Virus record (IMG/VR): IMGVR_UViG_3300050020_000061
Length of the DNA stretch: 64,000 bases
Source of the DNA: a virus
Strand: one strand, 5' to 3'
Shown here: one piece after another, positions 35,008 through 59,562 of the stretch
How positions within the stretch are numbered: position 1 is the stretch's first letter
Layout: each line of letters starts with the position of its first letter
The notes under the pieces: model-generated
The model's database searches: none
What the model was told of the DNA's origin: nothing
What the model saw: only the letters and a program-made list of their open reading frames with translations
Made by a program: the position numbers and the translations under genes

Positions 35008-35045
35008 TCGAGACTCGCGTGGACGTCTTCTAACGGGACAGGATG

Positions 35046-35438: not shown

Positions 35439-35440
35439 CC

Positions 35441-35515
35441 GCCAAGGAAGCTCAATGGACGAGCAACCGGCTTCTAACCGGCAGGCTGCGGGTTCGACCC
35501 CCGCCCTTGGCACCA
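35441..35515 (+). tRNA. tRNA-Arg(UCU)
   Basis: Full cloverleaf folded by hand: GCCAAGG/CCTTGGC acceptor, GCTC/GAGC D-stem, ACCGG-CTTCTAA-CCGGC anticodon arm, GCGGG-TTCGACC-CCCGC T-arm, A73, CCA. Confidence 0.8.
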
Positions 35516-44200: not shown

Positions 44201-46685
44201 GCCCCGGCAGGATGATCGCGGCCTTGATCGTGAACGAGCCGGTGGGGTGGGTAGCCTTGACCGCGTCGATGTAGAAGTGCGGGTGCAGCCACATCTCCCA
44301 GTACTGGTCCCAGTACGCGGAGGCGTCGTACTTCTCGGCGCTGATCGTGAAGGACCCGGTCCCCTGACGGCGGCCCTTGATCGCGAAGATCGTGAAGCGG
44401 GACTGCTGGTCAGGGGCGTAGATCACCGCGTTGATGAGGAAGCCGGTGATCCCCGCGCTGATCGTGAAGCTGCCTGTCGGGCGGCGGACGATGGCCGCCC
44501 TCAGGGTGGTCGACCCATACCCGTGGCTCAGGACGAGGGCATCGATCCCGAAGGAGGGCTGGACGAACGCATCGATGGAGAAGCTGCCGGGGATGATGTT
44601 CGAGACGTAGGCATCGATGAAGATCTCGAAGGACCCCGGAATGGAGCCCTTGAAGATGACCGCGTTGATGCGGAAGTAAGGCTTGATGACGGCGTTGATG
44701 GAGAAGCTCGAGGCGATCCCCGAGTTCTTCCACGCATCGATCTTGATGCCACGGTCATCGTGCCGGTAGTAGGTGATGACCTTGGCCGCACGGATCTCGA
44801 AGAACGGCTGGATGTAGGCGTCGACCGTGAAGGTGGCGTAGACCGGGTTCGTGATCCACGAGGCAATGTGGAGGGTTCCAGCCTGAGAACCCGTGACAAT
44901 GGCCCTGATCGAGAAGTAGCCACTGATGAAGGCCCCGACCGTGAAGGAGCCTGTGACCTTGCGGATGATCCATGCGTCGATGGGGATCTCGCACTTGATC
45001 CACGCGTCGACCGTGAAGTGGCGCGGGACGATCCGGGCGTCGATCCTGAAGAACGGCTGGATCCATGCTGCGACCGGGAACGCCGAGACGACGCGGATCT
45101 GCTTGAACGCATCGAGCGTGAAGTCGAAAGCGAAGGTCCAGACGAAGTTGGCGTCGATGGTGAACGTCGGGCTGATGAACGCGTCGATGCTGAAGTGCAG
45201 CGTCGAGGTGTTCCAGTCCTTGTAGGACCCGAGGCCCGTCAGGGACGGCCGGTAGACGTTCCCCTTCGAGGAGTAGACCCGGTAGGAGCCGGGGATGGGG
45301 AAGACGAAGTGCTCACCCGGCGTGGTCGGGATGGAGTACCTGATCGCACCCGTCGAGCTGATGATCCCCAAGTCCCCGCCGTCACTGGGCGGGTTGACCA
45401 CCACCACCACAGCAGGCTTGCCCGCCTCGACAGAGACGGAGGGGGACAGGATGTTGGCCGTCTGCCCGAGGTAGGTGGCGCTCACCCCCGGATAGGCGAG
45501 GGCCTTCTGGGTGGGACCCACCGTCGCGAGGATGACCGCATCGAGCTTGAACTCGAGGCAGATCTCCGCGTTGATGTAGAAGTACGGGTGGATGTAGGCG
45601 TCGATGTAGAAGAACGGGACGTGGAACGCATCGATGCTGAACGACGCCGTCTCCGTCGCCTTCTGGACAGCGTCGACCCTGAAGTAGGGGTGGATGAAGG
45701 CGTCGATGGAGAAGCGCGGCCGAATGACCGCGTCAATGGAGACCGAGCCCGTCTCCGCCCTGAGCTTGATCGCGTCGACCCTGAAGAAGGGCTGGATGAA
45801 GGCGTCGACGAAGAAGACCTGACCGAAGACGGAGTTGATCGTGAACGACCCAGCAGGGGTCGCCTTGATCGTGGCGTCGACGAGGAACTTCTTCGGGACG
45901 AGGAGAGCGGCGATGGAGAACGAGCTGGTGCGCTCCGCCTTCAGGGCAGCCCTGATGCGGATGGCCTGACGTGAGGACTGCACCTGCACGCTGCAGCCGG
46001 GGATGAGTGTCTCGCCCGAGTAAACGACGTAGGTGACCGTGCTCGACGTGAACGAGTCGGTGTCGATGCCCGTGGCTGAGAACGTCCGCGCCCCGACATA
46101 GAAGTCGGACGCGCCGCTGATCTTCAGGACCGAGAGGACGTACTTGCCCGTGGTCGGGGCTTCGTCGACGAAGGACCCGACGGCGTGCCACTGGTAGCCG
46201 CTGGAGTTGTCCCCGTAGTCCCAGCTACTGCCCTGTGGGTCGCTGGTGGCGAGCAGCTCGCCGCTCAGGTTGTCCCGGCGCAGCAGGATGATCTCGTGCT
46301 TGAAGACGGCCACCTGCGAGTGGCTGAACCAGACGTCCCACGAGATGGAGACGGGGACGCCAGTGGCCTCCATCGTCCGCAGGGCGATGGCGTCCAGCGT
46401 GAAGCGCGGCATGATGACCGCGTCGGCGGTGAAGGAGCCAGTCCGCGTGAGGCGGATGACGGCCGCGACCGTGAAGGATCCGCCTCGAGTCGCCTTCAGA
46501 ACCGCGTCGATCTTCGCCCAGCGAGCGATGAATGCGTCGAGGGTCAGGCTCCCCGTCTGGGTGCTTGGACCTCCGCCTGAGACGTCCTGAAACGCATTGG
46601 CCTGATACGCGCTGTCCTGAAAGGCGTGGAGACCGTTGTCGAAGACGGTCGCAGCGAAGACGCCGGGGTCGAAGATGCCGCTCAC
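41253..46685 (-). CDS. giant minor tail protein (1810 aa): N-terminal about 1200 aa is a degenerate F-x-I-D-A repeat array with three globular insertions; the C-terminal about 600 aa is a paralogue of the 46784-48385 tail protein
   Basis: GTG 46685. Example repeats: SFSIDAFISPTFTIDANF, QPFFRIDARIVPRHFTVDAWIKCEIPIDAWI, HPYFRVDAVQKATETASFSIDAFHVPFFYIDAYIHPYFYINAEI. C-terminal matches to the neighbour: VLHGVDxNILFDxL, TTDISxxxNDV, GRxQxAE, IRARS. Confidence 0.8.
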   Translation of the reverse strand: MSGIFDPGVFAATVFDNGLHAFQDSAYQANAFQDVSGGGPSTQTGSLTLDAFIARWAKIDAVLKATRGGSFTVAAVIRLTRTGSFTADAVIMPRFTLDAIALRTMEATGVPVSISWDVWFSHSQVAVFKHEIILLRRDNLSGELLATSDPQGSSWDYGDNSSGYQWHAVGSFVDEAPTTGKYVLSVLKISGASDFYVGARTFSATGIDTDSFTSSTVTYVVYSGETLIPGCSVQVQSSRQAIRIRAALKAERTSSFSIAALLVPKKFLVDATIKATPAGSFTINSVFGQVFFVDAFIQPFFRVDAIKLRAETGSVSIDAVIRPRFSIDAFIHPYFRVDAVQKATETASFSIDAFHVPFFYIDAYIHPYFYINAEICLEFKLDAVILATVGPTQKALAYPGVSATYLGQTANILSPSVSVEAGKPAVVVVVNPPSDGGDLGIISSTGAIRYSIPTTPGEHFVFPIPGSYRVYSSKGNVYRPSLTGLGSYKDWNTSTLHFSIDAFISPTFTIDANFVWTFAFDFTLDAFKQIRVVSAFPVAAWIQPFFRIDARIVPRHFTVDAWIKCEIPIDAWIIRKVTGSFTVGAFISGYFSIRAIVTGSQAGTLHIASWITNPVYATFTVDAYIQPFFEIRAAKVITYYRHDDRGIKIDAWKNSGIASSFSINAVIKPYFRINAVIFKGSIPGSFEIFIDAYVSNIIPGSFSIDAFVQPSFGIDALVLSHGYGSTTLRAAIVRRPTGSFTISAGITGFLINAVIYAPDQQSRFTIFAIKGRRQGTGSFTISAEKYDASAYWDQYWEMWLHPHFYIDAVKATHPTGSFTIKAAIILPGQPITSWFIDAQITSVVRTSFDIEAFISSEHTVVYEGEGEVVRVLHQITERLDFPGRDGIALGTIYPNILFGPFDAVPNLPVVFYIYEMPVGPGRPENDFGLASTNENQWCAPYQSMTGGEWGTSLVPMDNGGWVFTAIPVYSEPKYVYLNNTGTFEPSMIGSAIWSRYRYDDVVISHPAPTIDAWIVGTMGEPITIDAEIVGREKQGAFTLAADVSAQGEKRGSWTLDASIRGREFSFFKIFATIVPQHFTMDAVVWQPCVTIDAYIQPFLTIDAFLVPVQFAGTGSFTIKAWKAYLTPMSQMHIDAEIVSIGDMRGGVSIDAVVSIERVSRFYLAAYICLPPAGFSLDAMVAPWFTVDAWIAPKGGGLGGFTIGAYVRGSSYIIFPGDGGAPTDPFGNPPMLTRKFAVKIEAGFAQPLPQADMDLVASILRQIAALQARLDALLCIPVDERIPAENAAIKDLREQIAWLQKELLVARYQDPSEFWMDATSKMRAYLDTYLAVKDPTDAQQAAYEIDLKTYNYDLMRLRMAREPQKTWVEITGDCIWSGTEFTQMARTGPGTFTITMKGAHNEFVGGEEIHFEIDGLRVFGGFVTDVERGYFFEAAVAPKTVLHGVDYNILFDRLVVRNWPWEFANHHKTGGDAGPYRNWPAFKKGTMDDDMIEYVFKTYLLPDLPMGFDYESGVFPVATPAPESPWVMPDPGSPLRVFMQSVSQITAGVWCIDPYMVLQYHDRATVTAPYPLTDGLGGISSRALSVTTDISQMMNDVLVWGTLGKTVEGEILVTHELGDGHWRERYWLAAVVAQQTYINNILAVPAAKRSVYQKTTLAAHQARIIIYKANLANARAHPEVASFDLYGRWQYAEFRQDIFHQKWLDIRARSILLRYDDPIMMATATVWDPGYQAGQVINVKSSVYGIDINLVIRQLHITFTVAKEPVGEKFYALPQYDLTMGLDPEAPWNIYDFLPYPGMSTPGLGMDVTGA
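43065..46560 (-). repeat. coding tandem-repeat array (about 11-residue / 33-nt period, highly degenerate)
   Basis: GCGTCGATGG / GCATCGATGG / GCGTCGACC strings recur on the plus strand every few tens of nt. On the protein they give h-x-(I/V/L)-(D/N)-A-x-(I/V). Confidence 0.75.
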
Positions 46686-46783: not shown

Positions 46784-48385
46784 TCAGACTGCGTTGGCGT
46801 CCAGATTGTGCCAGACGTGGTACTCGACGTAGACGCTCTTGGCTGCCTTCAAGAGCTGGAAGGTCCCGAGGTCTGGACTGGTCTCGAGGAACCCCGCTCC
46901 ACCCGCGCTCTGCGGGTCGGGCACGCTCGTCAGGCGAAGCCCCTGTGCCACCACCGTCAGGCTGTCGCGGACGTAGGCGTAGGTGAGCTGCCACTTGTTC
47001 CCCGACATCGGGGTGGCCCACTCCTTCACCAGCACCATCGGTGAGGCCACGATGTAGGGGTAGTCAGTTCCGTACTTCGAGCGGTCGATCACGTTGAAGT
47101 TGGGCTGGACGAGGCCCCTCGCCGGGGGACGCTTCAGGGCGAGGAGCAGGCCCCACGGATCCTGCGTGTCGAAGCTGCAGGTGACCCGGTACTCCACCGT
47201 CGTGGGAGTGGGGAAGCTCATGTCGATGGCGCGGACTGGCAGGTTCACCCCGCTCTTCGTCTGCGGACCGAACACCGGGTCGTAGGTGGTGAAGGTGTGG
47301 ACCCCCGAGAAGATGCTCACGATCTGGCCCGGATAGAGACCGTGCTTGTAGATCGTGAACTCGGCCCGCATCGCAGGCACGCCCTCCTGATTGAGGATCT
47401 TGTTCGACCTCGCCCTGATCATCCCCGCCAGCCAGTCGGAGCCCATGGTCTCGGCCCACTGGAAGCGGCCGTACTGGTTGACCGAGGCCGCCAGTGAGTT
47501 GTGGACGTAGAGCAGGAACTCCTGCGTCGACGTTGGAGTCGGGTCGAGAGAGCCGGTGAAGATGATGACGTCGTTCTTGAGGCGGCTGATGTCGGTGGTG
47601 ATCGTGAGGGACTTGCAGGCCACGCTGCCCTCGTTGTCTCCAACGGAGAACGGGGCCCAGTCGGTGTCCTGCTCCTTGTAGACGATGTAGCCCTCGGGGT
47701 CGATGTACCAGATCGAGGACCCCGGCATGCTCCTCAGGATGTTGGCCGAGACGTCGGTGAAGAATGCCCTCAGGGAGGTCCCCGCAGACGGTGGGGTCCA
47801 CGTGGCACCCGTGTCGCCCGTGTTGATGACGGCGACCTCGTCGATCCGGCTGTCAGCGGGGTTGAGCTGGCCCCACTTGATCAGCGGGCTGACCTTGTCG
47901 AGGTCGAAGCTGGTCAGCATCTTGGTGATGTACGCCTTGTCGGTGGTGCCCTTGGGCACCGCCACCACGTAGCCCGAGATCTGGCCGTTGGTGGTCACCT
48001 TCTGGCGCTTGTACCCACCCAGCCCGGTCTTCGGGTTGCTGCCATCGGGATACCACGTGGGCTTGAAGCGGTTGTACAGGTACAGCTTGTCGAACAGGAT
48101 GTTCAGATCGACACCGTGCAGGACCATGCGCGGCTCAGGTGCGTCGGGGAAGACGTAGCCCTGCTCGAGCACGAACAGGTAGCCCCACCACATCCTCACG
48201 CCGTTGATGTAGAGGGCGATCAGATCCCTCCCCGGAGAGAAGGTGTAGAGAGCCCTCAGGGTGACGGTGCAGGACCCCGGCTGGGCTGCAGCCACGGCCT
48301 GAAAGTTGGTTTGGCTGAAGATGACGTCCGCCGTGACATCGGTCGTCCCGACCGTGATCGTGACGACCGCCTCCTCGACGTCCAT
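46784..48385 (-). CDS. minor tail protein (533 aa; distal-tail/hub position directly after the tape measure)
   Basis: I trimmed the start to ATG 48385 (MDVEEAVVTITVGTTD...), overlapping the tape-measure stop by 1 nt. Paralogous to the C-terminus of the 1810-aa protein. Confidence 0.75.
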   Translation of the reverse strand: MDVEEAVVTITVGTTDVTADVIFSQTNFQAVAAAQPGSCTVTLRALYTFSPGRDLIALYINGVRMWWGYLFVLEQGYVFPDAPEPRMVLHGVDLNILFDKLYLYNRFKPTWYPDGSNPKTGLGGYKRQKVTTNGQISGYVVAVPKGTTDKAYITKMLTSFDLDKVSPLIKWGQLNPADSRIDEVAVINTGDTGATWTPPSAGTSLRAFFTDVSANILRSMPGSSIWYIDPEGYIVYKEQDTDWAPFSVGDNEGSVACKSLTITTDISRLKNDVIIFTGSLDPTPTSTQEFLLYVHNSLAASVNQYGRFQWAETMGSDWLAGMIRARSNKILNQEGVPAMRAEFTIYKHGLYPGQIVSIFSGVHTFTTYDPVFGPQTKSGVNLPVRAIDMSFPTPTTVEYRVTCSFDTQDPWGLLLALKRPPARGLVQPNFNVIDRSKYGTDYPYIVASPMVLVKEWATPMSGNKWQLTYAYVRDSLTVVAQGLRLTSVPDPQSAGGAGFLETSPDLGTFQLLKAAKSVYVEYHVWHNLDANAV

Positions 48386-51300
48386 CAGACGGCTGGACCA
48401 CGCAGGCCGAACATCTGGCCCTTGCGAGCGAGGGTCTTCTCTACCTCGGCCGCCACCTGACGCGCCAGATCCGTGATGTCCTGATCGTTGCGAACGGAGG
48501 TCCCTGTGATGTTCACCGTCAGGTTCATCGGGCCCACGCCACCGCCACTGGGAGCGAGAGTGGCGGCTCGCGGGTTGCGGAGGATCGCGACCGCCTCGCT
48601 GCCAGCCTCGCCGATCATGGCGTGGGTCGGCATCGAGGTGATCCCCACTGCACCGGAGGCGATCCCGAAGATGCGCTTGTAGTAGGGGTCCACCCCACCG
48701 GCCTTGGCGAGGCCACCGGGGCCGAGGTGCCACGGGGAGCGAGCGATGGCGTTGAGCTGGGCGTTCGCGCTCTGGCCCACCGTGCCCATGATCCCCGAGT
48801 AGTACGAGCTGGACTTGATCAGGTTCGCGGCTGCGGCAGCGCCTGCCTCAGGGGTCGCGAAGCCAGCAGGCTGGCCCGGACCCTTCATGATCCCGAGGTT
48901 ATTCAGGGGCCCGACCTCGGCCTGCGCCCACTTCCGTGAGGCTTCGACCGTCAGGCCGGTGTTCTTGGCGAGGGCCGCAGCGAACCGATCCAGCCGCTCG
49001 TTCTTGGGGAGGTTGGCCGTGGTCGAGGGAGAGAACGAGGGGGCGGCGACCTTGGGGTTGGCGGCCTTGGGGTTGTCCCCCGGAACCGTCGGGGTGGCGG
49101 CGGCCTGAAGATCCGAGATGGCCTTGGCGAGGGAAGCCACGGACGCGTCAGCGAGGACGACCTTGGGGAAGCTGGTCTGGATGGCCCGCATCCAAGCGTT
49201 GATGTTCGTGTCCGTCAGGGCCACGTCGGTGGGGCCGTTGTTCCCCGTCAGCGGACGAGCGTTGCGGATGATCGCGACGGTCTCGGGGCCAGCCTCGCCC
49301 ACGATCATCTCGGTGGCGTGACCGATGCTGCCGAGGAACCCGGCCGCGTTCTTCTTGCCGCCGCCGCCGCCGCCCGAGGAGACAGGGGCGTAGCCGGGGA
49401 CCACCACGACCGGAGTCCCAGTGGATCCGAACCCGGAGGTCGGTGCCGTCAGGACGGTATTGCCGCTCTTGTCGGTCGTCTTGGTGTAGCCGAGGGCCTC
49501 GTAGACGGCCTTGACCCCGTCCTTCACGGAGCCAGCGAACTGCCCAACACCCTGCGCGGCAGCGGACAGGGCGTCTGACCAGTTGCCCGTGGCCGTCCCG
49601 AGGATGGCGTTCATGCCCGCCACCTTGGTCGCCAAGATCGCCTGCTGCTTGGCGATGTTCTCCTGCGCCGTGATCGCGTAGCCCTCGGCGTTGCGGGCCA
49701 ACTGCATGTTCGTGATGGCCTTGGAGGCGTCGAGAGCGGCACGGTTGGCGTTCTCGTTCCAGATCTTCTGGCCGAGATCGAACTGCTGGGTCGCGATGTT
49801 GAGCTGCTGCTGCTGGATCGAGGCCTTCTGGATCGCCTCGACCTGAGCGAAGTACCGCTCCTCTCCCGTCTGTCCGGGGGCGGAGAACTGGGCCTGAGCC
49901 AGAGCCGTGGTGATGCTGCGCTGCTGGAGCTGCAGGCTCAGGCTCTGGTTCATGATGTCCAACTTGTGGGACATTCCCTGCCAGATGCCGAGCTGGGTGG
50001 CGGTCCCGCTCACGCCGGAGGTGTTCTTGATCCCGGCCCCAGAGATGGCACCGAGGGCGTCCCCCACGGCGCGGCTGGCGAGGCGGATCTGGTTGTCCCA
50101 GTTGAACTGGCTCGCCTCCTGATTGAGCTTGCCCATCTTCGTGGTGAGATCGGCGATCTTCGCCGACGACACGTTCGCCTGAATGGCGAGCACCGCGAAG
50201 TCAGGCAGGGAGGCCGGGTTGAACTGCCCGACCTTCGTGAGCGCCTCGAACAGGCCCTTGCCGGAGATGGCAGCCAACTGGGAGTTGGCGGCGGCCGTGG
50301 ACGCCAGCGACTGCTGGGCCATGCCCGCAGCGGGGCCGGTCAAGCCGGTCGCGGTCGCGCTCGGCCGACCTGTCTCAGCTCCCTTGAAGAACCCGAGGCC
50401 GGGGGCCACCAGAGGCTGCTGGAGCAGGTTCTGGGTCATCTGGAAGGGGATCTCGAGGGCCATGGTGAGCTGCTGCTGGGCCTGACGAGACTGCTGCTGG
50501 GCCTGAAGCTGGCGGATGTTCAACTGGGCCCAGACGCCGGGGTCGACGAGGTTCTTCCCGGCTGCGGTCTGCTCGATGGCGTCCTGATGCTGCTTGATCT
50601 GATCGGCTGCCGTCTTCGAGCTGTCGACGATCTGGCCGTTCACCTTCATGACGATGTTCGACTGCATCGCCAGATTGGCGCTGTACGTGTCGCCAGCCTT
50701 GGTGGCGATGGCGACCGCCTTATCGACCTCGTCCCACGACTTGGCGACTTCCCACGTCACCTTCACGGACTTCTTGCCGGAGACCTCCATGTTCTTCCCG
50801 GCCCGATCAGCGGCAGACCCGAGATCGTTCAGCGCGTTGGTCCGGGCATTCACGTCGATCTGACCCATGCCGATGTTGGCGTCGAACTTCGGGAGCTGGG
50901 CAGCCTTCTGCTCGGGGGTCATCTGGTAGTTGGAGCTGTAGTTGCCTGCCCCGATGGATCCGATCAGCGCCCCGGCGATAGCGCCGATGGCAGTCCCCGG
51001 ACCCGGCAGGATCGAGCCGATGGCCGCCCCTGCCAGAGCGCCACCCACGCCACCAATCGCGGTGCTCGCGCCTACGTCGCCGGGTGTCGCCATCCCGGCC
51101 GCCTTGGCCTTGTAGTCGATGTACGCCTGCTCGTTGGGGCTGGTGACGTAGTTGGCCCCGGTAGCGATCTGGTTGAGGGTCCCGGTGACGCCATTCCCGC
51201 CGGTCTCAGCCTTGCTGTAGCCGCTGAACTGACCGGCAACGGTCTCCATGAAGCCCTTGCCGCCGCCCATCTGCTCGGCGAACAGAGCGGACCCGAGAAC

Positions 51301-54300
51301 GCCTCCGTAGCCCCCGTAGAGGCCCTGAGGCGGCCCTGTCTGGGACCCCATCGAGGCGCGGAAGATGTCGGCCGTCGCCTGCTGGGCCTTCTGCCCCGCC
51401 TTGGCGGTGACGGACGCGTCCAGAGACGTGGAGACGAAGGCGAGCATGTCCTTCGACAGCCCAGCCGTCACGGCAGCCTGAGCCATCGTCGCCTGCATGT
51501 TCCCGTGGGACTCGTAGGTGGCCTGAGCGAGGGCCGAGGTGGCAGCCGTGGACGTCGACCTGAAGCCGGTCATCTGGTCGACGAACTTGCCAGCCGCCTC
51601 CGACCCGGCGTCGATGCCCTTGCTGGCGAGGGACATCGCCATGCCGTAGACCGTGGTGGCACCGATGACCACGCCGAGGTTCCGAATGATGTTGCCCGTG
51701 CTGGGCTGCATCTTGACCGTGGTGGCTCGGAGATCGTCGAACTTCGAGATCACCTTCCCCAGCTCACCGGGGGCCTTCTTGTACTCCTCGATGGACCTCT
51801 TGATCGAGTCCCGCTCCTTGCCACGGGCACCCATCAGGTCGGCCTGAAGGTTGACGTACTTGTTCAGCTCTGGGGCGGTCTCAGGAGTGACGAGGCCAGA
51901 CAACTGGCGCTGCTGGTGCCGCGCCTCGGTCTGAAGCTGGAGCATCTTGCCCCGGCCACCGAGCCCCATGGAGGCGAGCTGGGCGATGCCGCCTCGCGGG
52001 GTGCGCCCCGACATCACCTGCTGCCACGCGCTCGACTCACCCATGATGTCGGCGAGGGTGCCCTTGAACTCCTTGTAGGCATCAGCCTGCTCGGGGGACA
52101 CCGCTGCGCGACGAGCAGCGCCCATGCGTGCCGAGGCTCCCTGCATCCCACGAGGTGCGCGAGGAGCGCGACCACCACCCATGGCGGCCTGCACGTCAGC
52201 GCCCTGCTGCTCGATCCACTCCTGATACGCGCCGGGGTTGTTGAAGCCACCGGCCGGAACGGTCGGTCCAGCGGTCGGCGTGGCCTGAGGGCGATGACGA
52301 GGCGAGACCCTCTCGGTGGGCGGACGCGAAGCCTCGCGGCTCCGCATCAGGGCGTCGTGCTCGCGCTGCCAGACGGGATCACCGAACAGGGCAGGACCGC
52401 TCGTGAGCTGCTCGTCCGTGAACTTCCGGCCGCCTCTGCCGGGGCCAGCCGTGGCGACACTGGGCTGCTTGGCCGCCCTCTGCACGGGGAGGATCAAGCC
52501 AGTGAAAGCCGCCTGCAGCTTCTCGGCGGCGAGCGCCATCTCGTTGATGGGGGCCGCCATCTTGCCTGCGGCCTCGGCGGCCGGAGTCAGGATCGGGCCC
52601 GTGGACACTCCGGCTCCGGGCTTGGTGAGGCCCAGCGATGCCAGAGTGGCGGTCGACGGGGCGAAGGAGGGGCCCGGAGGAGGCGTGCGCGGGATGGCGA
52701 ACATGTTCTGGGGGGTGCGGAGACCACCGTGCAGGGTCTCGAACTCCCTCGCAGCACGCTCCCTGATCTTCTTGTAGGGGTCGACCTTGCTCTGCTGGAA
52801 GGCGGCCTCGAGCGTCTCCCCTCCGTCCTGACGATGGGGCACGAGGTGCATCAGGCGGTTGGGGACGATGATCCCGTCCTCGGGGGGCGCGAACAGGCTG
52901 TTCGGCTTCTGGCCGATCACCTGCATGCCGCCCTGCGCCTTCGGGATCTGGTCCATGACCTTCTTGGGGATCAGGGGCGTCAGGGGCTTGGGGACGAACA
53001 GCTCCCTGCCAATCTCGCCGACGATGTACAGGCCCTTGCCGCCGGGAGACAGTTCCTTCGCGGGAAGGTTGTTCTCGAGCGCACGTCGCACCCATGGCGA
53101 CATGACGGGACCACCGCCCTCGCGACCAGTGAACTTCGCGAAGATCTCGGCTGCCCGCATGCGCTGCGGATCCACCCGCTCGAGCGAGCGGTTGGCCGAG
53201 GCAATCCGGGTGAGCCCGGGGCTCTCGATCAGTCCGCCGATGGCGCGAACTGCCGCCTCCGCGTCGGTGCCGGTGGCACGGAGCCGGAGCTGGTCACCCT
53301 GCCGCGCACCCAGCGCCAGCAGGTGGTGCATGTACTTCGCGTCGACCACGCCGCGCTGCGGCATGCCACGGGTCAGGTTCTCGACGCTGATGAAGGCGTC
53401 GAAATCGGCCGCCATCCTCGCGAGGTGGGCCGAGGGACGCATGTGGAGGCCGAGCTGGTCCGCGACCGTGAAGAGATGGCTGACCGGCCCTCCGCCCTCG
53501 CGGTAGATCTTCGGGGGGAGCTTCGACGTGCGGGCGCGCTTCAACCACTCGGGCTCGAAGGGCTCGACCGGCTTCGGCATCTCGACCTTCGGAGGCTCGG
53601 GCAGGCCGAGGATGCGGCGCTGCAGTGGGCCCAGAACGGGGCCCCCCTCGGCGTGCCCTCCCTTGGTCCAGTTGGTGCCGTAGACGCCGCGCATGTAGTT
53701 CCCGGCCAAGGCCCGAGTCCAACGTCGGGGGTCATTGAGACTCCCCATGGTCTCGTTCCAGCGCCGGTCGCCGACCAGCGTGCCACCCGTGAAGGGAAGA
53801 GGCGCTCCGACGAAGTCCTCGTTCAGGCGGGGAGGTCCGACACGCTCGATACGCTTGGGATTGAAGACACCAGCGCGGTACTGGCGCAGGCGCTCGCGAC
53901 GACGCTCCCAGTCGCGGTTCGGCACGTACCCGCCGCGAGCCTTGTGCTGGTCCGCCTGCTGCTGCCACGCCATGATCGCCATGAAGGGATCGTTGGCCCA
54001 GTCGGCAGCGGTCTGGAACATGGACGAGACGAACCCGGGCTTGGCGATCTGGTTGAGGGGCGGAGTCATGCCCCCCAGAGCAGGGCCACCAGCGGCCCGA
54101 TGGAAGGGGATCTCGAGCCCCGGATGACGCGGGATCGAGATGCCGCGCTGGGTCCTGAGCCAGTCCGTGCCGAGGCCAGCGCCCTTGTGGGCGGCGTTGA
54201 CGTTCGTGTCGAGGCCAGACCAGAGGATGGCCTGAAACTCGCTCAGGTTGTGGAGGTCCCACCGCTTCGCGTACTCGGGGTAGAGATCCTCCATCGCCCC

Positions 54301-57300
54301 GATGCCGAGCTTGCGGATCATGTCGCTCCCGGCGGGAGCCTTCCAGAAGGTCTTGCTGTTCGGGCCGGTGTGGCGACGAGCAGCGGTGATGATCTGGGAC
54401 ATGCGGGAGTCGTAGGTGATGGCGTTCGGATCGAGGCCAGTGATGTTCTGGAACATCGCGCCGCGCTTGGGCCCAGTCGGAGAGCCCTCGCGGCCCATCA
54501 AGAACGCCCATGCGTCCTCGATGGGGCCAAGGCCCCGACCGGCGGAGAAGGACGTCTCGCCGAACCCGGGCACGTTGGAGCTGCCGGAGGTCTGGGGGAC
54601 TCCGGTCTCGAGCAGGTGACGGACGATGGCGCGGTTGGAGCGCCACTCCTGCCCCGACGATGCGGCAGCGAACGCGCCGAGCCCCGACAGGGCATCCATC
54701 CCGAGGGACTGCCAGCTCGTCTTCCCGCCGATGATCGGGTCCATGAGGTCGCCCACGGCCTGCGCGTGAGCGATGGTCCACCAGTCCCGGGCCTCGTTGA
54801 CCACCTCGGGCTTGATCGTCTCGGCGTGGGCACGGATGTTCGCATGGAGATCGCGGGCGTTCTCAGGCAGCCGCATCAGGCCACGGAGGGGGTTCTTGGG
54901 AGTGGAGGATGGCACCACCCAGCCGCCGTCAGCTCGGAGGCCGATGCTGCTGGGGGCGAGGAGAGCGCCGCGAGGGGCGTCGACCGGCGAGCCCGAGAGG
55001 CCCACCAGCTTGTAGTGGCGCTTGCTCTGGGGACCGCTGCTGATCGCGTAGGCGGGCACGGTCTCGAGACCCAGTCGACGAGCCACGGCGAGGCGATGAT
55101 TGCCATCGTCGACCATGGCCGCGTGGTGCGACGGGTCGTAACGCAGGGCGATGGGCTTCTGGATGCCACGCGCCGCGATGTCGCCGGTCAGCTCACCGAG
55201 ATCGGTGGCACCCTGTCCGGTGCGTGGGTACGTCTCCCGGTCCTCGCGGAGCAGGGGCAGCAGAGTCGACAGGCGGACGTTCTCGACCATTCCCCCCGAC
55301 TCGCGCTTGCGGCCAGCCATGATGAGCTGTTGGATCCGCTCGGCGTTGGCGCGCAGCTTGTGGCCGCTGGTCGGGATCTCGTCGAACCGCTTCAGGTCGA
55401 AGAACGCGAGCTGCGCCTTGGCGCGAGCGACCATGTCTGCTTCGCGCTTGCGGCCAAGGACAGCGGCGGGGTCGATGTGGATCTGGCCCTCGTGGAGCCA
55501 CGTGCCGACGTACGGCGGGAAGCTGCCAGCCGCGAGCTGGGACTGCTTCTGGGCGTTGAACTGCTTCAGGAAGTCGCGGAAGTTGTTGGGGTCCTCGACG
55601 AGGTGCGACGTCCCGGTCGCGATGCCGACGGCGTAGCCCTTGGGCGGCTGCGGCCCACCGGAGAGCGGGAAGGTGCCGCCCTCGTTCTCCATCGTGGCCC
55701 GGTAGGCCATGGCCCCGAACCCGGCCTTCTTGATGTTCCGCAGGATCCGCCACGACTCGATCTCGCCAGCAGCGTTGTGGAGCTGCACGGCATAGCCGCG
55801 TCCGACAGGAGCCACGCCCACATACCCGCCCGGGGCGGAGTGGTCCTGATAGTGGTTGATCGTGTCCTGAATGGCGTGGTAGAGCCCCTCGGGACGCGGG
55901 GCGTAGTGGCCCCCGCCACCGGGCAGTCGGCTGATCTCGACCGCGCCACCGCGAGCGCGGAAGCGCACGCCGGGGCGGTCGGGAATGAACTGGTTCTCAC
56001 CGAATGCTGGGGCAGGCTGGGGAACGTGAGCGCGAGGCTGAGTCGAAGGGTTCCATTCCGAGGTGGCAGTCCATGGACCGTTCTCCCCATAGGAGACACG
56101 TCGCATCTGCTCCTGCGGGTCGTTGCGGCGCTGCGCTCGGGTCCGGGCCCTCGTCGGGAGAGGCTGGCCGAACGCAGGAGGCTCACGCCGTGGGGCTCGG
56201 GCGGCTGCAGCCATTTCGATGGGTGACAGCGACGGGCCGGGGAGCGGGGGGACATTGCCCAGCCCACCCCACGGCCTGCCGCCCGCCAGAGTCTCTGGCC
56301 GATGCGCGAACGAGATGTGAGCATCGAGACCGGACTGGGCGAGGAATGGACCGGCCGCCGTGCCGCACGTGGGGCACAGGAGGTTCTGGCTCTGACGGAT
56401 GGCCTGCGCTCGGGCTCGCTGGACAGGATCGTATGTCGTGGGGCCTTGGCCGGATGCTGCCTGCCTGCGCTGGTACTCCAGCGTGTAACGGTCGTACTCT
56501 TCCTCCCGCCGTGCCGTGGACAGGATGCGGGCATCGACGGGCCGGTCCCCGAAGATCTTCCCGAACGGACGATCCTTCTGCGCCCAGAACGCCTTGCCGC
56601 GTGTGAGCTGGACGCTCGAGGGGGCGATGGGCCTGCCGGTGAACCGCTCCGTCTTGACGTAGGCGGCTGTCGCCAGACCCTTCCTGCGGTGCTCGACACC
56701 CGTGATCGAGTAATCAGGGTGGAAGCTCCCTGCGGGAGTGGGGACGCCCCACTGCTCAGGATCTGACCTGTAGCTGAAGGGGAAGGTCGCCGCGACCTTG
56801 TCGCCCTTCATGACGATAGCGACGAGCCCCGCTGCATAGTCCTTGGACAGGATCACGGGCTTCTTGACGGGCTTGAACCCGGGCCCGGGCTTGTCCAGCC
56901 GCCCACCGAAGTTGCGGATGTCGAAGTCGTTGCTCTGGGGGCTGTAGAACTCGATGTGGTAGCCCTTGGGGAGACCACCCTTGTGGGCTGGCCCGCCATG
57001 GGCACGAGCGGAGATGTTCTCTCCACCCTGCAGCTTGGCCGCAAGAAGCTCCAACTGGCGGATCTCGGACTCGCTGTAGCCGCCACGGTTGGCGGCCACA
57101 CGGCGCTTGCCACGCTGCTGGATCTGGTACTCGAGGGCAGCCAGCTCCGCTTCCGCCTTCCGCAGGCGAGCCTGTTCCCTGTGATAGGCGTTGATGTCAG
57201 GCAGAACCATGCCCGATGAACGCGGGCGAATGATCTCAGGCCCGCGCTCCCCCACCAGAACGTCACGTCCCTGCTGAACAGCGCCACCATGGGCCCGGGT

Positions 57301-57738
57301 GGGCAGGTTGTTGCGAACGGCCGTCTCAACGGCTCTGGCAGCCCCTGAGCGCGTTCCAATGGCCGGGGTAGAGACCGCCGAGACCACGCTCTTCGCTTCG
57401 GCCGCGATGGCCTTCGACATCTGCGGAGTGATGGTGATCGGGATGGAGCCGAGGCCCTTGATGATCTGGGCGCGGAGAGAGGCGAGGCTCTCCGCGTTGA
57501 CCGTCAGGGGGACGTTGACAGCCTGCATCTGGGCAGGGGTGCCCCCGGCGACGGCTCGCCCGCCACCGGCTACCTGTGCCCCACCCAGCGCCTTCATCCC
57601 GCCCGCGCCGGAGACGGCCCTCTCGGCAGCGGCCGTGAAGGCATTCATCGACGCGGTCGCCTTATCGGCTCCGCCCGCAAACCCAGAGGCGTCCAGCGTG
57701 AGCCTGACGCCGATGGTCTCGACTTCCGTGTTGCCCAT
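48385..57738 (-). CDS. tape measure protein, 3117 aa, with an N-terminal about 1500-aa array of globular modules
   Basis: It sits between the G/G-T chaperones and the minor tail genes. The C-terminal half is Ala/Gly/Gln-rich and helical, with a glycine-zipper segment and MIVGEAGPETVAIIRN / AMIGEAGSEAVAILRN motifs. The N-terminal half carries the GNAT-like, Zn-finger, ParB-like and HPr-like modules listed separately. No stop or frame break across 9354 nt. Confidence 0.85.
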   Translation of the reverse strand: MGNTEVETIGVRLTLDASGFAGGADKATASMNAFTAAAERAVSGAGGMKALGGAQVAGGGRAVAGGTPAQMQAVNVPLTVNAESLASLRAQIIKGLGSIPITITPQMSKAIAAEAKSVVSAVSTPAIGTRSGAARAVETAVRNNLPTRAHGGAVQQGRDVLVGERGPEIIRPRSSGMVLPDINAYHREQARLRKAEAELAALEYQIQQRGKRRVAANRGGYSESEIRQLELLAAKLQGGENISARAHGGPAHKGGLPKGYHIEFYSPQSNDFDIRNFGGRLDKPGPGFKPVKKPVILSKDYAAGLVAIVMKGDKVAATFPFSYRSDPEQWGVPTPAGSFHPDYSITGVEHRRKGLATAAYVKTERFTGRPIAPSSVQLTRGKAFWAQKDRPFGKIFGDRPVDARILSTARREEEYDRYTLEYQRRQAASGQGPTTYDPVQRARAQAIRQSQNLLCPTCGTAAGPFLAQSGLDAHISFAHRPETLAGGRPWGGLGNVPPLPGPSLSPIEMAAAARAPRREPPAFGQPLPTRARTRAQRRNDPQEQMRRVSYGENGPWTATSEWNPSTQPRAHVPQPAPAFGENQFIPDRPGVRFRARGGAVEISRLPGGGGHYAPRPEGLYHAIQDTINHYQDHSAPGGYVGVAPVGRGYAVQLHNAAGEIESWRILRNIKKAGFGAMAYRATMENEGGTFPLSGGPQPPKGYAVGIATGTSHLVEDPNNFRDFLKQFNAQKQSQLAAGSFPPYVGTWLHEGQIHIDPAAVLGRKREADMVARAKAQLAFFDLKRFDEIPTSGHKLRANAERIQQLIMAGRKRESGGMVENVRLSTLLPLLREDRETYPRTGQGATDLGELTGDIAARGIQKPIALRYDPSHHAAMVDDGNHRLAVARRLGLETVPAYAISSGPQSKRHYKLVGLSGSPVDAPRGALLAPSSIGLRADGGWVVPSSTPKNPLRGLMRLPENARDLHANIRAHAETIKPEVVNEARDWWTIAHAQAVGDLMDPIIGGKTSWQSLGMDALSGLGAFAAASSGQEWRSNRAIVRHLLETGVPQTSGSSNVPGFGETSFSAGRGLGPIEDAWAFLMGREGSPTGPKRGAMFQNITGLDPNAITYDSRMSQIITAARRHTGPNSKTFWKAPAGSDMIRKLGIGAMEDLYPEYAKRWDLHNLSEFQAILWSGLDTNVNAAHKGAGLGTDWLRTQRGISIPRHPGLEIPFHRAAGGPALGGMTPPLNQIAKPGFVSSMFQTAADWANDPFMAIMAWQQQADQHKARGGYVPNRDWERRRERLRQYRAGVFNPKRIERVGPPRLNEDFVGAPLPFTGGTLVGDRRWNETMGSLNDPRRWTRALAGNYMRGVYGTNWTKGGHAEGGPVLGPLQRRILGLPEPPKVEMPKPVEPFEPEWLKRARTSKLPPKIYREGGGPVSHLFTVADQLGLHMRPSAHLARMAADFDAFISVENLTRGMPQRGVVDAKYMHHLLALGARQGDQLRLRATGTDAEAAVRAIGGLIESPGLTRIASANRSLERVDPQRMRAAEIFAKFTGREGGGPVMSPWVRRALENNLPAKELSPGGKGLYIVGEIGRELFVPKPLTPLIPKKVMDQIPKAQGGMQVIGQKPNSLFAPPEDGIIVPNRLMHLVPHRQDGGETLEAAFQQSKVDPYKKIRERAAREFETLHGGLRTPQNMFAIPRTPPPGPSFAPSTATLASLGLTKPGAGVSTGPILTPAAEAAGKMAAPINEMALAAEKLQAAFTGLILPVQRAAKQPSVATAGPGRGGRKFTDEQLTSGPALFGDPVWQREHDALMRSREASRPPTERVSPRHRPQATPTAGPTVPAGGFNNPGAYQEWIEQQGADVQAAMGGGRAPRAPRGMQGASARMGAARRAAVSPEQADAYKEFKGTLADIMGESSAWQQVMSGRTPRGGIAQLASMGLGGRGKMLQLQTEARHQQRQLSGLVTPETAPELNKYVNLQADLMGARGKERDSIKRSIEEYKKAPGELGKVISKFDDLRATTVKMQPSTGNIIRNLGVVIGATTVYGMAMSLASKGIDAGSEAAGKFVDQMTGFRSTSTAATSALAQATYESHGNMQATMAQAAVTAGLSKDMLAFVSTSLDASVTAKAGQKAQQATADIFRASMGSQTGPPQGLYGGYGGVLGSALFAEQMGGGKGFMETVAGQFSGYSKAETGGNGVTGTLNQIATGANYVTSPNEQAYIDYKAKAAGMATPGDVGASTAIGGVGGALAGAAIGSILPGPGTAIGAIAGALIGSIGAGNYSSNYQMTPEQKAAQLPKFDANIGMGQIDVNARTNALNDLGSAADRAGKNMEVSGKKSVKVTWEVAKSWDEVDKAVAIATKAGDTYSANLAMQSNIVMKVNGQIVDSSKTAADQIKQHQDAIEQTAAGKNLVDPGVWAQLNIRQLQAQQQSRQAQQQLTMALEIPFQMTQNLLQQPLVAPGLGFFKGAETGRPSATATGLTGPAAGMAQQSLASTAAANSQLAAISGKGLFEALTKVGQFNPASLPDFAVLAIQANVSSAKIADLTTKMGKLNQEASQFNWDNQIRLASRAVGDALGAISGAGIKNTSGVSGTATQLGIWQGMSHKLDIMNQSLSLQLQQRSITTALAQAQFSAPGQTGEERYFAQVEAIQKASIQQQQLNIATQQFDLGQKIWNENANRAALDASKAITNMQLARNAEGYAITAQENIAKQQAILATKVAGMNAILGTATGNWSDALSAAAQGVGQFAGSVKDGVKAVYEALGYTKTTDKSGNTVLTAPTSGFGSTGTPVVVVPGYAPVSSGGGGGGKKNAAGFLGSIGHATEMIVGEAGPETVAIIRNARPLTGNNGPTDVALTDTNINAWMRAIQTSFPKVVLADASVASLAKAISDLQAAATPTVPGDNPKAANPKVAAPSFSPSTTANLPKNERLDRFAAALAKNTGLTVEASRKWAQAEVGPLNNLGIMKGPGQPAGFATPEAGAAAAANLIKSSSYYSGIMGTVGQSANAQLNAIARSPWHLGPGGLAKAGGVDPYYKRIFGIASGAVGITSMPTHAMIGEAGSEAVAILRNPRAATLAPSGGGVGPMNLTVNITGTSVRNDQDITDLARQVAAEVEKTLARKGQMFGLRGPAV
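53218..53483 (-). other. HPr (PTS phosphocarrier)-like domain inside the tape-measure ORF
   Basis: HLFTVADQLGLHMRPSAHLARMAADFDAFISVENLTRGMPQRGVVDAKYMHHLLALGARQGDQLRLRATGTDAEAAVRAIGGLIE. This aligns by eye along its whole length with E. coli and B. subtilis HPr (GLHxRPA with His15, vdAKS, LG-x3-G, G-x-DE). The Ser46 position is Tyr. Confidence 0.75.
55048..55288 (-). other. ParB/Srx-like nuclease-fold domain inside the tape-measure ORF
   Basis: VENVRLSTLLPLL...GIQKPIALRYDPSHHAAMVDDGNHRLAVARRLGLETVPAYAI. The DGxHRxxAxxxxGxxxVP core is present. Confidence 0.55.
56302..56380 (-). other. C2H2-like zinc finger inside the tape-measure ORF
   Basis: LLCPTCGTAAGPFLAQSGLDAHISFAH. Confidence 0.45.
56551..56964 (-). 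other. GNAT acetyltransferase-like domain inside the tape-measure ORF
   Basis: GYHIEFYSPQSNDF...GLVAIVMKGDKVAATF...ITGVEHRRKGLATAAYVKTERF. The last segment fits GNAT motif A (V-x2-h-RRKG-h-A). Confidence 0.45.
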
Positions 57739-57755: not shown

Positions 57756-58333
57756 CTACACCGCCTCACCCGTGTGAGACTCAGCGTTGAAATCTATGAC
57801 GTCGCCGTCCGTGGGTAGTCTGTCGCCTTCGGTGGCGATGGTGTTTCCCTTCACCCAATCCTCGCGCAAGGCGAGGTAATAGTGAAAAGGGAGGCCAGCT
57901 ACCTCGTGAGGCCATTTCCCGTACTGGCGGGCAATACGGAAGATGAGATCACGAGTGGTCAGGCGTTTCCCTTGGGGGTCTCCTCGGCCTCGTCCGACTC
58001 CGGCTTCTCGACCTTCTTGCCCTCCGGCTCGTCACCGTAGTGCATCTTGTTGACGGTCTGGTTGAGCTTCAGGACCACGCGCATCGGGAGGCTCGAGAGC
58101 GCCTCCGCAGTGAGCTTCGGGTCGAAGGCGCACTTGAGGACCATCATCTTGAGGAGGACGGCGTTGTCGATGCTCTCGACGTCCTCGCCCGTCAGGGGGT
58201 TGGTGGTCTTCTTGGAGGCCTTGGTCACCAGATCGTCGTACTCCCCGATGGAGAGTTCGCGCAGGTGGTAGATGGTGCCACGGATGTTGACCTCCTCCTC
58301 GAGGAAGTCGGGTGTCAGCGTTCGACCGGCCAT
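57756..58333 (-). CDS. tail assembly chaperone frameshift product (gpG-T-like), made by a -1 shift at 57965-57971
   Basis: The -1 frame continues as ...KGN|RLTTRDLIFRIARQYGKWPHEVAGLPFHYYLALREDWVKGNTIATEGDRLPTDGDVIDFNAESHTGEAV to TAG at 57756-57758. This extension is absent from the ORF track because it has no start codon. Confidence 0.7.
57959..58333 (-). CDS. tail assembly chaperone (gpG-like)
   Basis: 124 aa, acidic C-terminus, directly upstream of the tape measure, with a slippery heptamer just before its stop. Confidence 0.75.
   Translation of the reverse strand: MAGRTLTPDFLEEEVNIRGTIYHLRELSIGEYDDLVTKASKKTTNPLTGEDVESIDNAVLLKMMVLKCAFDPKLTAEALSSLPMRVVLKLNQTVNKMHYGDEPEGKKVEKPESDEAEETPKGNA
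57965..57971 (-). promoter_or_regulatory. -1 programmed ribosomal frameshift slippery heptamer G GGA AAC
   Basis: X XXY YYZ in the zero frame (aaG GGA AAC gcc tga). Lambda G-T uses G GGA AAG. Confidence 0.7.
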
Positions 58334-58739: not shown

Positions 58740-59165
58740 TCAGAGAGACCCGGCGTTGAACACGGTCCACGCCCCGGCAGCCTTGAAGTTGCCGGTCGTC
58801 TTGATCGCGTCCGAGATGGACGCGGTGATCGCGGCGTCGATGAGGCTCGGGCCGTAGCCGACGAGCATCTCGAAGCCTGCGCGGTCGTCCGCGTAGAGAT
58901 AGACGTCGATGCTGTCGCTCGCCGCCGCGTTGACCTCGTAGTCACCGCTCACGTCGAGGATCCCGGCGAACGTGCCGGAGACGTCGCGAAGACCCACGAG
59001 GTAGGTTTTGTTCGTGTCGCCGAAGACGGTCGCGTCGACGAAGTCGCGGTTGAGGTTGAGCGTCCACTCGGTCTTCGTCGAGACCTTCTTGCCGACGCCC
59101 TTGGGGCCCCAGAAGTAGATCGCGCCGTTTTTGCCGTGGAGCTTCTTGCCGTCGCCTGTTGCCAT
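58740..59165 (-). CDS. major tail (tube) protein, copy 2
   Basis: 141 aa. MATGDGKKLHGKNGAIYF...DVSGTFAGILDV...TTGNFKAAGAW. Position is typical for a siphovirus tube protein. Confidence 0.7.
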   Translation of the reverse strand: MATGDGKKLHGKNGAIYFWGPKGVGKKVSTKTEWTLNLNRDFVDATVFGDTNKTYLVGLRDVSGTFAGILDVSGDYEVNAAASDSIDVYLYADDRAGFEMLVGYGPSLIDAAITASISDAIKTTGNFKAAGAWTVFNAGSL

Positions 59166-59196: not shown

Positions 59197-59562
59197 TTAC
59201 CATGCCCCGGCAGCCTTGAAGTTGCCGGAACATCTCACCGCGTCGGAGACGCTGACAGTCACGGACACATCCACGTACGCAGGGCCTTCGGCCACGAGAT
59301 GCCCATCGTCGGCGTACAGGGAAACGAGTACCGACTCGCCCGTGTTGCTCTGAAAGGCAAGGTCGTAGTCGACGTCCAGCAGTCCCGCGAAGGTCCCACT
59401 GATGTCCTTGAGCCCCGCCGCGTACACCTTGTTCCTGTCACGAAACGTGGAGACGTCGGCGTAGTCACGAGCCATGTTGAGGGACCACTCGGTCTTGTCG
59501 GAGACCTTGACGTGGTTGATGCGGATGGATCCGTTCTTGCCATGCAGCTTCCCGTCAACCAT
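59197..59562 (-). CDS. major tail (tube) protein paralogue, copy 1
   Basis: I trimmed the start to ATG 59562 (MVDGKLHGKNGSIRINHV...). Collinear with copy 2. They share an identical 24-nt string (59205-59228 = 58772-58795). Confidence 0.65.
   Translation of the reverse strand: MVDGKLHGKNGSIRINHVKVSDKTEWSLNMARDYADVSTFRDRNKVYAAGLKDISGTFAGLLDVDYDLAFQSNTGESVLVSLYADDGHLVAEGPAYVDVSVTVSVSDAVRCSGNFKAAGAW

Follow-up and report, generated by a model that had tools for sequence, protein, structure and literature searches.

We found that the predicted tape-measure protein of a siphovirus-type phage contains a domain of the HPr family, the phosphocarrier of the bacterial phosphotransferase system (PTS). 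The phage DNA comes from IMG/VR record IMGVR_UViG_3300050020_000061, and the stretch that we analyzed (the window) is 64,000 nucleotides long. The domain lies in a single open reading frame (ORF) of 3117 codons. It is one of a variable set of passenger modules that follow a conserved N-terminal region and precede the tape-measure core. The identity of the domain and this architecture are near-certain. The overall explanation that we favor, that the tape measure delivers an intact HPr module that engages a host PTS partner locally, we rate just short of an even bet.

An HPr domain in a giant tail ORF

The segment belongs to the HPr family by profile matches and by predicted fold. The Pfam profile PF00381 matched the whole protein with E = 3.2e-18 and 66 bits (cut-off of 23) over profile positions 4-80 of 81, and the excised segment with E = 4.7e-20 and 71.9 bits. 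Sixteen solved HPr, NPr or HPr-related chains matched the domain in a phmmer search. The best NCBIfam models were those of FruB-type fused IIA/HPr proteins, together with the generic HPr family; TIGR01003 scored marginally below its cut-off (45.3 versus 47.9). An AlphaFold2 model, built from five phage HPr copies (predicted local distance difference test score, pLDDT, of 78), had the topology beta-alpha-beta-beta-alpha-beta-alpha, with secondary-structure elements in the order E-H-E-(E)-H-E-H. In a Foldseek search of the PDB, the top 39 matches were all HPr, Crh or NPr, and the best was E. coli HPr (4xwj_B), on which the predicted model superposed with a template-modeling (TM) score of 0.93, normalized to the target, and a root mean square deviation of 1.1 Å.

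The active-site loop of the window copy is complete. It reads D-x-x-G-L-H-M-R-P-S, with Gly13, Leu14, His15, Arg17 and Pro18 all kept. The position of Ser46, which is the HprK/P site and marks the HprK-regulated subset rather than the whole family, is Tyr in the window copy and Leu, Gln or Ser in other phage copies. An earlier sequence-only reading of this DNA had proposed HPr from three motifs, and all three are there. His15, Arg17 and Pro18 lie in GLHMRPS, 'VDAKY' has Tyr in place of Ser46, and the C-terminal half reads LG-x3-G...A-x-G-x-D-A. The PF00381 search and the structural superposition that it recommended both came out in favor of HPr. The peptide it described is present, and it is encoded by the minus strand, which was left unstated; the domain has 85 residues rather than 88. 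The span given for it (53218-53483) was out of frame and 5-6 nt too far at both sides, the true one being 53224..53478. Based on the profile matches and the predicted model, we conclude that the segment is a true member of the HPr family, with an intact fold and the whole of the phospho-acceptor loop.

The phage domain shares with E. coli PtsH, PtsO and the HPr-like domain of FruB the fold, the His15/Arg17/Pro18 loop and the LG...G...A-x-G-x-D half, and it shares an 'NLTxG' loop with FruB-type and multi-domain HPr modules. It differs from them in its setting, at residue ~1420 of a virion structural protein, whereas members of the HPr/NPr/FPr family are free-standing or fused to other PTS domains. 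It also has an insertion of 5-10 residues in the beta2-beta3 loop, a replaced Ser46, and an extra C-terminal helix (residues 97-106 of the model) in a tail that is conserved in relatives of one subtype (subtype A, below). We found no PTS genes among the window ORFs scanned.

The ORF that carries the domain has the position and the make-up of a tape-measure gene. From ~63.7 kb down to ~40 kb, the minus strand encodes a siphovirus-type structural module, in the order major head protein, head-tail adaptor, Neck1, gp17-like protein, major tail protein, tail assembly chaperone, the giant ORF, and ORFs of 533 and 1810 residues (Table 1). At the end of the chaperone ORF there is a slippery sequence, G_GGA_AAC (57971..57965), in the right phase for -1 slippage, and the -1 frame is then open for ~70 codons. 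It is closed by a stop at 57758..57756, which is 18 nt upstream of the start codon (ATG) of the giant ORF. We take this heptamer to be of the same type as that of the lambda G/GT site (G_GGA_AAG) and the arrangement to be canonical ahead of tape-measure genes. A G/GT frameshift between the ORFs of 111 and 124 residues was considered and rejected, as the slippery site is absent there and the actual site is the end of the 124-residue ORF. The C-terminal ~1200 residues of the giant protein are rich in Ala, Gln and Gly. The PHROG family phrog_23574 ('tail length tape measure protein') gave a short match of 45 residues over the glycine-zipper segment (E = 2.3e-6), and an RcGTA-type tape measure matched weakly at the extreme C-terminus (E = 7e-4, 19 bits versus a cut-off of 220). 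Because of its position, the frameshift and its composition, we conclude at the level of sequence that the giant ORF is a tape measure, though its homology to named tape-measure families is weak. The sequence-only reading was therefore right to place the domain inside a phage tail protein: the ORF follows the major tail gene and the G/GT chaperone pair and has a tape-measure PHROG match at its glycine zipper.

The HPr domain is a long-standing and constrained part of these phages. When we compared the module with that of the gene for a relative, P0004 (contig L001), 85 of 85 residues were identical and the DNA was 96% identical, with all differences synonymous (pS 0.15, pN 0). The two proteins are 54% identical in their best local alignment, and the neighboring modules had dN of 0.06-0.19 and dS of 0.31-0.75 against L001. 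Against more distant relatives, dN/dS of the HPr module was 0.3-0.6, similar to that of the remaining protein. By these substitution rates, which are estimated from sequence, none of the other modules compared is under purifying selection as strong as that on the HPr module. The G+C content (GC) of the module, and that at third codon positions (GC3), equal those of the whole gene, which rules out a recent capture from a host. Based on the lack of non-synonymous change against L001 and on the gene-like GC and GC3, we conclude that the domain has long belonged to these phages, has ameliorated and is strongly constrained, and is not a recent capture or an assembly chimera.

Passenger modules and their distribution

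The part of the protein between the N-terminal region and the hinge is made of modules that vary among relatives. We cut the window protein at the junction motifs and compared the resulting pieces with 18 relatives. The N-terminal ~250 residues, the hinge and the tape-measure core form a conserved backbone, and between the N-terminal region and the hinge the modules are present or absent, duplicated and reordered from one relative to another. Of the 26 family sequences that we examined, 20 contain the hinge, and several of the others are truncated fragments; the mean column identity of the hinge is 82%. A search with the hinge retrieved eight viral contigs and one contig from a metagenome-assembled genome (MAG). 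The latter (CAYHBG010000001.1, 76,653 bp), the sole match in a genome collection, is deposited in an 'uncultured Thermotogae' MAG. Its hinge is 78% identical, it is as long as these phage genomes, and it almost certainly represents a mis-binned phage.

ParB_N matched one module of the window protein below threshold (E = 0.0067, 16.9 bits versus a cut-off of 26.3), and the homologous module of P0003 reached 23.7 bits; phrog_6218 ('ParB-like') matched the same window module with E = 0.003. DUF7178 occurs among the modules of relatives, and several other modules are without recognizable relatives. One module, M4b (residues 673-816), accompanies HPr in all nine HPr-bearing proteins of the module table (the window protein and eight relatives). 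Its predicted fold is of mediocre quality (pLDDT 67) and had no match in the PDB (best E = 0.39). Comparison with the relatives shows the window HPr to be one of a set of interchangeable passenger modules between the N-terminal region and the core.

The modules begin just after a short junction motif. There are 17 [RKH]-x-x-G-G sites in the N-terminal 60% of the window protein, compared with 3.2±1.8 in shuffled sequences; the C-terminal 40% has none. The consensus, taken from 171 sites in 16 family proteins, is R-A-x-G-G-P-V. All of the phage HPr copies directly follow R-x-x-G-G-P-V/I, except that of P0016, which has a non-canonical lead-in. Three roles are conceivable for the motif: a protease site, a flexible linker, or a recombination 'splice' sequence at which modules are exchanged. 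It resembles the N-terminal part of a longer motif, 'GG...VGExGPE..P', that recurs in the tape-measure termini, and this similarity is more suggestive of a structural repeat or recombination linker than of a cleavage site.

HPr recurs at different positions in related giant proteins. A word-indexed search with the whole protein yielded 14 giant homologues of 2150-3325 residues, of which four contain PF00381: at residue ~1406 in one, ~1000 in another, ~849 and ~1347 in P0004, which has two copies, and ~534 in the fourth. In these homologues HPr may precede or follow DUF7178 and the ParB-like module. A scan of IMG/VR with an alignment of the phage HPr copies found eight viral contigs with GC of 63.5-65.6%; all eight matches lie inside giant open frames, and the frames that are not cut by a contig end have 2261 and 2609 residues. 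The highest-ranked matches in an exhaustive profile search of 1.84 billion representatives include the family members, P0027 (2583 residues) being a more distant one. P0027 combines HPr and ParB-like modules with AGGGPV junctions and is encoded on 49 contigs; JGI named it automatically 'HPr family protein'. The search of other tape measures that the sequence-only reading called for thus recovered the same kind of insert. The same architecture is present in assemblies from ENA, NCBI, JGI and Logan; the occurrence of the family in four independent assembly sources, and of one member on 49 contigs, suggests that this is no curiosity but a strategy under selection.

In all, we count at least 13 distinct HPr copies in these phages, which fall into three subtypes (A, B and C); one copy is truncated at its N-terminus. 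Subtypes A and B occur together in P0004 and in L008. The G-L-H-[MI]-R-P loop and the Asp at position 10 are invariant in all 12 full-length copies, down to 36% identity.

HPr domains between GG-containing motifs also occur outside this family. Five unrelated giant proteins of 925-2235 residues (P0020, P0021, P0024, P0025 and P0029), which look cellular and several of which have an N-terminal signal-like sequence, contain tandem HPr domains with 'R-D-G-G' motifs between them, a second and independent case. Three further giant proteins of up to 2673 residues (P0026, P0097 and P0102), apparently from low-GC organisms, seem by eye to have a PEP-utilizing-enzyme-like region (PEP, phosphoenolpyruvate) and two HPr domains near the C-terminus.

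Deposited phages and the literature gave no earlier case of HPr in a tape measure. Searches of 50,697 phage records with the C-terminal 1871 residues (tblastn) and with 24 kb of the DNA (megablast) gave zero matches, and the terminase is at most 31% identical to that of any deposited phage; by these comparisons the lineage is far from any cultured phage. The same records contained eight weak matches to HPr. We inspected three, and none was in a tail gene: they were a bacterial chromosome, an S. aureus ptsH in a record marked UNVERIFIED, and a standalone 88-residue HPr in an unverified fecal contig. Contig 14 of 'Acinetobacter phage MD-2021a' (CAKLQH020000014.1) is host DNA with the gene order folK-panB-panC-rapZ-ptsO-thrS, and an UNVERIFIED Staphylococcus phage record (OR845008.1, GC 31%) has an apparent S. 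aureus ptsH. Our literature search did not find an HPr module described in a tape measure, a polyvalent protein or an effector of a contractile injection system (CIS). The claim of the sequence-only reading that there was no described precedent is borne out by these searches. As far as these searches reach, the presence of HPr in a tape measure is new; tape measures with wall-degrading motifs, injected polyvalent proteins, and CIS effectors with swappable domains were already known.

Those three kinds of protein share some features with the one described here. Tape measures with embedded functional motifs include that of mycobacteriophage TM4, with an Rpf-like motif, and pb2 of phage T5, with a muralytic region. 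As in those proteins, the tape measure would be the carrier of an extra activity at genome entry, and the insert is dispensable for determination of tail length in relatives. In contrast, the TM4 and T5 inserts act on peptidoglycan in the envelope and are single motifs, whereas the present insert is a cytoplasmic signaling or phosphotransfer protein in an array of about 10 shuffled modules that spans roughly 1300 residues.

Polyvalent proteins (Iyer et al. 2017, PMC5512222) are likewise very large, are encoded in a late or structural context, have shuffled unrelated domains, including ParB/Srx-like ones, and are presumed to enter with the DNA. Their delivery anchors are head-associated (MuF, vRNAP, DarB-like), whereas here the anchor would be the tape measure, with R-A-x-G-G-P-V junctions. 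HPr, the phosphotransferase system and tape measures have zero occurrences each in that survey (PMC5512222). Polyvalent proteins combine at least two unrelated effector-type domains in variable architectures; the present family has HPr, the sub-threshold ParB/Srx-like module and, in relatives, DUF7178, and their order and content vary. Among the domains that define the class (MuF, zincin MPTase, ART, methylase, helicase and DdrB-like ParB, among others), a ParB_N-like one alone was found, at 16.9-23.7 bits and below the cut-off of 26.3. The ParB/Srx-like module recalls the DdrB-like ParB domains of polyvalent proteins.

Effectors of the Sle1 type (PMC13277306) also have a tape-measure-related scaffold with exchangeable 'functional domains', and they are loaded in the tail tube and ejected. 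They belong to an actinobacterial intracellular CIS and not to a phage and have one C-terminal functional domain, and the abstract of that paper reports no HPr.

Possible delivery and roles of the HPr module

Fusion to the tape measure would bring the HPr module to the inner membrane of the host. Tape measures engage the inner membrane (PMC5099701). The tape measure would leave the tail ahead of the DNA and cross or insert into the cytoplasmic membrane, and the passenger array, including HPr, would thereby reach the inner membrane face at genome entry. Because the tape measure exits before the DNA and engages the inner membrane, its cargo should reach the cytoplasmic face. There, the HPr module would bind a host PTS partner through its native face around His15, the partner being enzyme I (EI) or an EIIA-type domain on a PTS permease or a component of the nitrogen-related PTS (PTS-Ntr). 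The role would be local: the tape measure and incoming genome would be docked to a PTS membrane complex or, alternatively, phosphorylation by phosphorylated EI would report the PEP and energy state of the host. The two subtypes that co-occur in some proteins would address two different PTS branches. We regard docking or sensing of this kind as a genuine possibility that we nevertheless doubt. A more detailed version is unlikely. It makes the module a built-in adaptor or sensor that docks on EI or EIIA at the permease after the membrane is breached and is phosphorylated on His15, so that the DNA-entry channel is tied to the PTS; the module may then read the PEP/pyruvate state and gate entry or bias early decisions, with subtypes A and B directed to, for example, the sugar PTS and PTS-Ntr.

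There are precedents for a link between siphovirus tape measures and the host PTS at the inner membrane. The EIIAB protein ManX is normally phosphorylated by HPr. For DNA entry, lambda and related phages depend on ManYZ, the mannose permease of the PTS (PMC6832061), and HK97 depends on PtsG (PMC5099701). In work from 2026, the lambda tape measure was proximity-labeled by TurboID-ManZ during injection, and ManX was labeled too (PMC13190303). These tape measures are without HPr. They rely on the membrane (EIIC/D) subunits and are not known to rely on phosphotransfer, so the connection to the present domain would be by analogy.

Several points weigh against delivery and local PTS engagement. The presence of the passenger array in the virion or the cytoplasm is deduced solely from its fusion to the tape measure. 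HPr on several tape-measure chains must fit, or unfold, in a tail-tube lumen of ~4 nm. The lambda and HK97 precedents, taken as analogies, concern membrane permease subunits and tape measures that have no HPr domain. HPr is absent from many family members, making it accessory and not essential for injection. Finally, apart from the active-site loop, the canonical partner-contact positions (helix 1 and helix 2) show no extra conservation across subtypes when set against the remaining positions (mean column entropy of 1.33 versus 1.20 for the rest). That divergence would fit subtype-specific partners, without being positive evidence for them.

One alternative is that the giant ORF is a polyprotein vehicle. 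The R-A-x-G-G junctions would be protease sites, the modules would be freed late in the producer cell, for example to tune sugar uptake or PTS signaling for phage production, and only the C-terminal core would enter the tail. The confinement of the 17 junction motifs to the cargo half, with none in the core, and the behavior of the modules as autonomous cassettes fit this alternative, and a full-length ruler of 3117 residues would imply an exceptionally long tail (~0.15 nm per residue, our own estimate). We detected no protease gene or domain in the ORF or among the window genes scanned, with ~11 kb of the genome lying outside the window. Phages can also co-express genes without polyproteins, cleavage would part the conserved N-terminal region, which is upstream of the cargo, from the core, and the junction resembles the start of the motif at tape-measure termini described above. 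Based on these points, we consider a polyprotein quite unlikely.

Also improbable, in our judgment, is that HPr was exapted as an inert fold, a compact and stable filler or a protein-protein adaptor in virion assembly that might, for instance, bind a second phage protein, and that has lost its connection to the host PTS. The divergence of the helix-1 and helix-2 contact positions between subtypes, the many relatives that do without the module, and the other passenger modules without recognizable function are all compatible with such a filler. HPr paralogues that left phosphotransfer, such as Crh, lose His15. In the phage copies the G-L-H-[MI]-R-P loop is invariant even at 36% overall identity, and there was zero non-synonymous change in the module while neighboring modules changed, both of which argue against an inert fold.

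The sequence-only reading had raised the idea of a decoy, in which an injected HPr competes for EI, HPr kinase or HPr-binding regulators early in infection. Such a decoy would globally rewire catabolite control; the numbers and the Ser46 position count against it. HPr is among the more abundant cytoplasmic proteins, and the tape measure is present at ~3-6 copies per virion. For T4, an estimate of a hexamer is quoted (PMC5099701). Because so few copies would be delivered into an abundant host pool, stoichiometric competition is implausible; a local role is likely and bulk titration is not. HPr itself does not turn over catalytically, so a few molecules cannot shift a fast-equilibrating phosphorelay. 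Tyr in place of Ser46 bars HPr kinase from its usual action on the window copy, and Tyr, Leu or Gln at this position excludes the HprK/CcpA route for several copies. In favor of a decoy, the domain is intact, with His15 and Arg17 present, two HPr modules in some proteins would double the dose, and HPr is a known hub; complexes with Rsd, glycogen phosphorylase, a fructose regulator, CcpA and HprK are among the structural matches. On balance we think a decoy very unlikely.

The probability that a host ptsH fragment was joined to a phage contig by mis-assembly, or that two genes were fused by a sequencing error, is negligible: the sequence does come from metagenomic assemblies and several HPr matches in 'phage' databases proved to be host contamination, but the identical 3117-residue protein is on four contigs, the architecture recurs in the independent assemblies and the eight IMG/VR contigs, and family-specific junctions flank the domain in frame. 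Together, the independent assemblies and the matching GC and GC3 effectively refute an artefact.

If the HPr module is delivered and phosphorylated, a virion structural protein would carry a component of the central carbon-signaling phosphorelay of the host, and we know of no earlier case. It would give a testable handle on the old puzzle of why lambda-like phages need PTS permeases for DNA entry, and an adaptor role, if true, would supply a molecular reason why siphoviruses so often depend on these permeases. The concept of the polyvalent protein would then include tape measures, which would be the delivery chassis and have a defined junction, and the R-A-x-G-G-P-V motif could serve in the engineering of cargo-carrying phages.

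Genome context and other features

The 3117-residue protein is encoded on a contig of 75,053 bp among the four, and contigs of relatives have 76.5, 77.1, 76.7 and 75.8 kb; these sizes are consistent with complete genomes of ~75-77 kb. Other genes in the window encode a large terminase, a portal, an ERF recombinase, a PD-(D/E)XK nuclease, an AEP primase, an AAA_25 helicase, an HNH endonuclease and three tRNAs. Pfam scans of 40 window ORFs pointed to no particular host, and no lysis cassette was recognized. The positions of the features are collected in Table 1.

Table 1. Position and basis of assignment of features in the window
Feature	Position	Strand	Basis or remarks
HPr (PTS phosphocarrier) domain	53224..53478	minus	Residues 1421-1505 of the 3117-residue ORF; Pfam, PDB sequence matches, AlphaFold2 and Foldseek
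Whole HPr passenger module	53110..53487	minus	Residues 1418-1543; HPr fold and conserved C-terminal helix/tail ('SPGLTRIASANRSLE...'), to the next R-x-G-G-G junction; bounds from junction motifs
Junction 'YREGGGPV'	53482..53505	minus	Directly N-terminal to the HPr fold
Variable passenger (cargo) array	53110..56991	minus	Residues 250-1543; module presence and position in 18 relatives, Pfam architectures of relatives
ParB/Srx-like passenger module, tentative	55051..55236	minus	Residues 835-896 ('...DDGNHRLAVARRLGLETVP'; 'DGNHRLA'); sub-threshold
C-x2-C...H-x4-H zinc-finger-like element in module M3	56302..56376	minus	'CPTCGTAAGPFLAQSGLDAHISFAH'; a faint YnfU-family match (E = 0.1) is the sole database support
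Giant tape-measure ORF	48385..57738	minus	3117 residues; single uninterrupted ORF, GC3 0.86; follows the G/GT chaperone pair
Conserved N-terminal region	57283..57738	minus	Residues 1-152, ending 'RAHGGAVQQGRDVLVGERGPEIIRP'; N-terminus of 16 of 18 family proteins; phrog_30701, E = 8e-8
Hinge	52819..53034	minus	Residues 1569-1640 ('GLYIVGEIGxELFVP...IPKAxGGMQVIGQKPNSLFAPPEDGIIVPNRL'); between cargo array and core
Pro/Ala-rich segment	52042..52818	minus	Residues 1641-1899 (~260); hinge to core
Tape-measure core	48388..52041	minus	Residues 1900-3117; glycine-zipper segment and two C-terminal 'GEAGxE' motifs; conserved in 18 of 18 relatives
Glycine-zipper hydrophobic segment	51004..51063	minus	Residues 2226-2245, 'TAIGGVGGALAGAAIGSILP'; Kyte-Doolittle hydropathy of at least 1.5
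-1 frameshift site and GT extension	57756..57971	minus	Read directly from the sequence
Tail assembly chaperone G-like gene	57959..58333	minus	124 residues; phrog_344 'tail assembly chaperone', E = 7e-4; gene order
Major tail (tube) protein gene	58740..59165	minus	phrog_10528, phrog_1407 and phrog_9522 'major tail protein', E = 2e-9 to 2e-4
gp17-type tail completion	59562..59990	minus	
Neck1 / tail completion	60004..60669	minus	
Head-tail adaptor	61369..62280	minus	
Major head protein	62345..63688	minus	
533-residue ORF	46784..48388	minus	Downstream of the tape measure; no Pfam or PHROG match; presumably distal tail, hub or fiber
1810-residue ORF	41253..46685	minus	Downstream of the tape measure; no Pfam or PHROG match; presumably distal tail, hub or fiber
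HNH_3/HTH_7 homing-endonuclease-like gene	39344..39868	minus	Near the tail genes
Three-tRNA cluster	35019..35515	plus	Trp-CCA, Leu-CAA, Arg-TCT
446-residue protein	15112..16452	plus	Ends in a DUF6011 domain
Terminase and portal genes	1881..5186	minus	Left end of the window

The Pro/Ala-rich segment between the hinge and the core had a detectable counterpart in none of the 18 relatives compared; only its start is visible, in L004 and P0016. The left end of the window holds the terminase and portal genes, and the right end holds the major head gene. On the 75-kb contig, the distance from portal to major head gene is ~13 kb, which is unusually long, and ~11 kb of this gap is outside the window. 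In L001, the gap between the portal and major head genes holds a GT4 glycosyltransferase.

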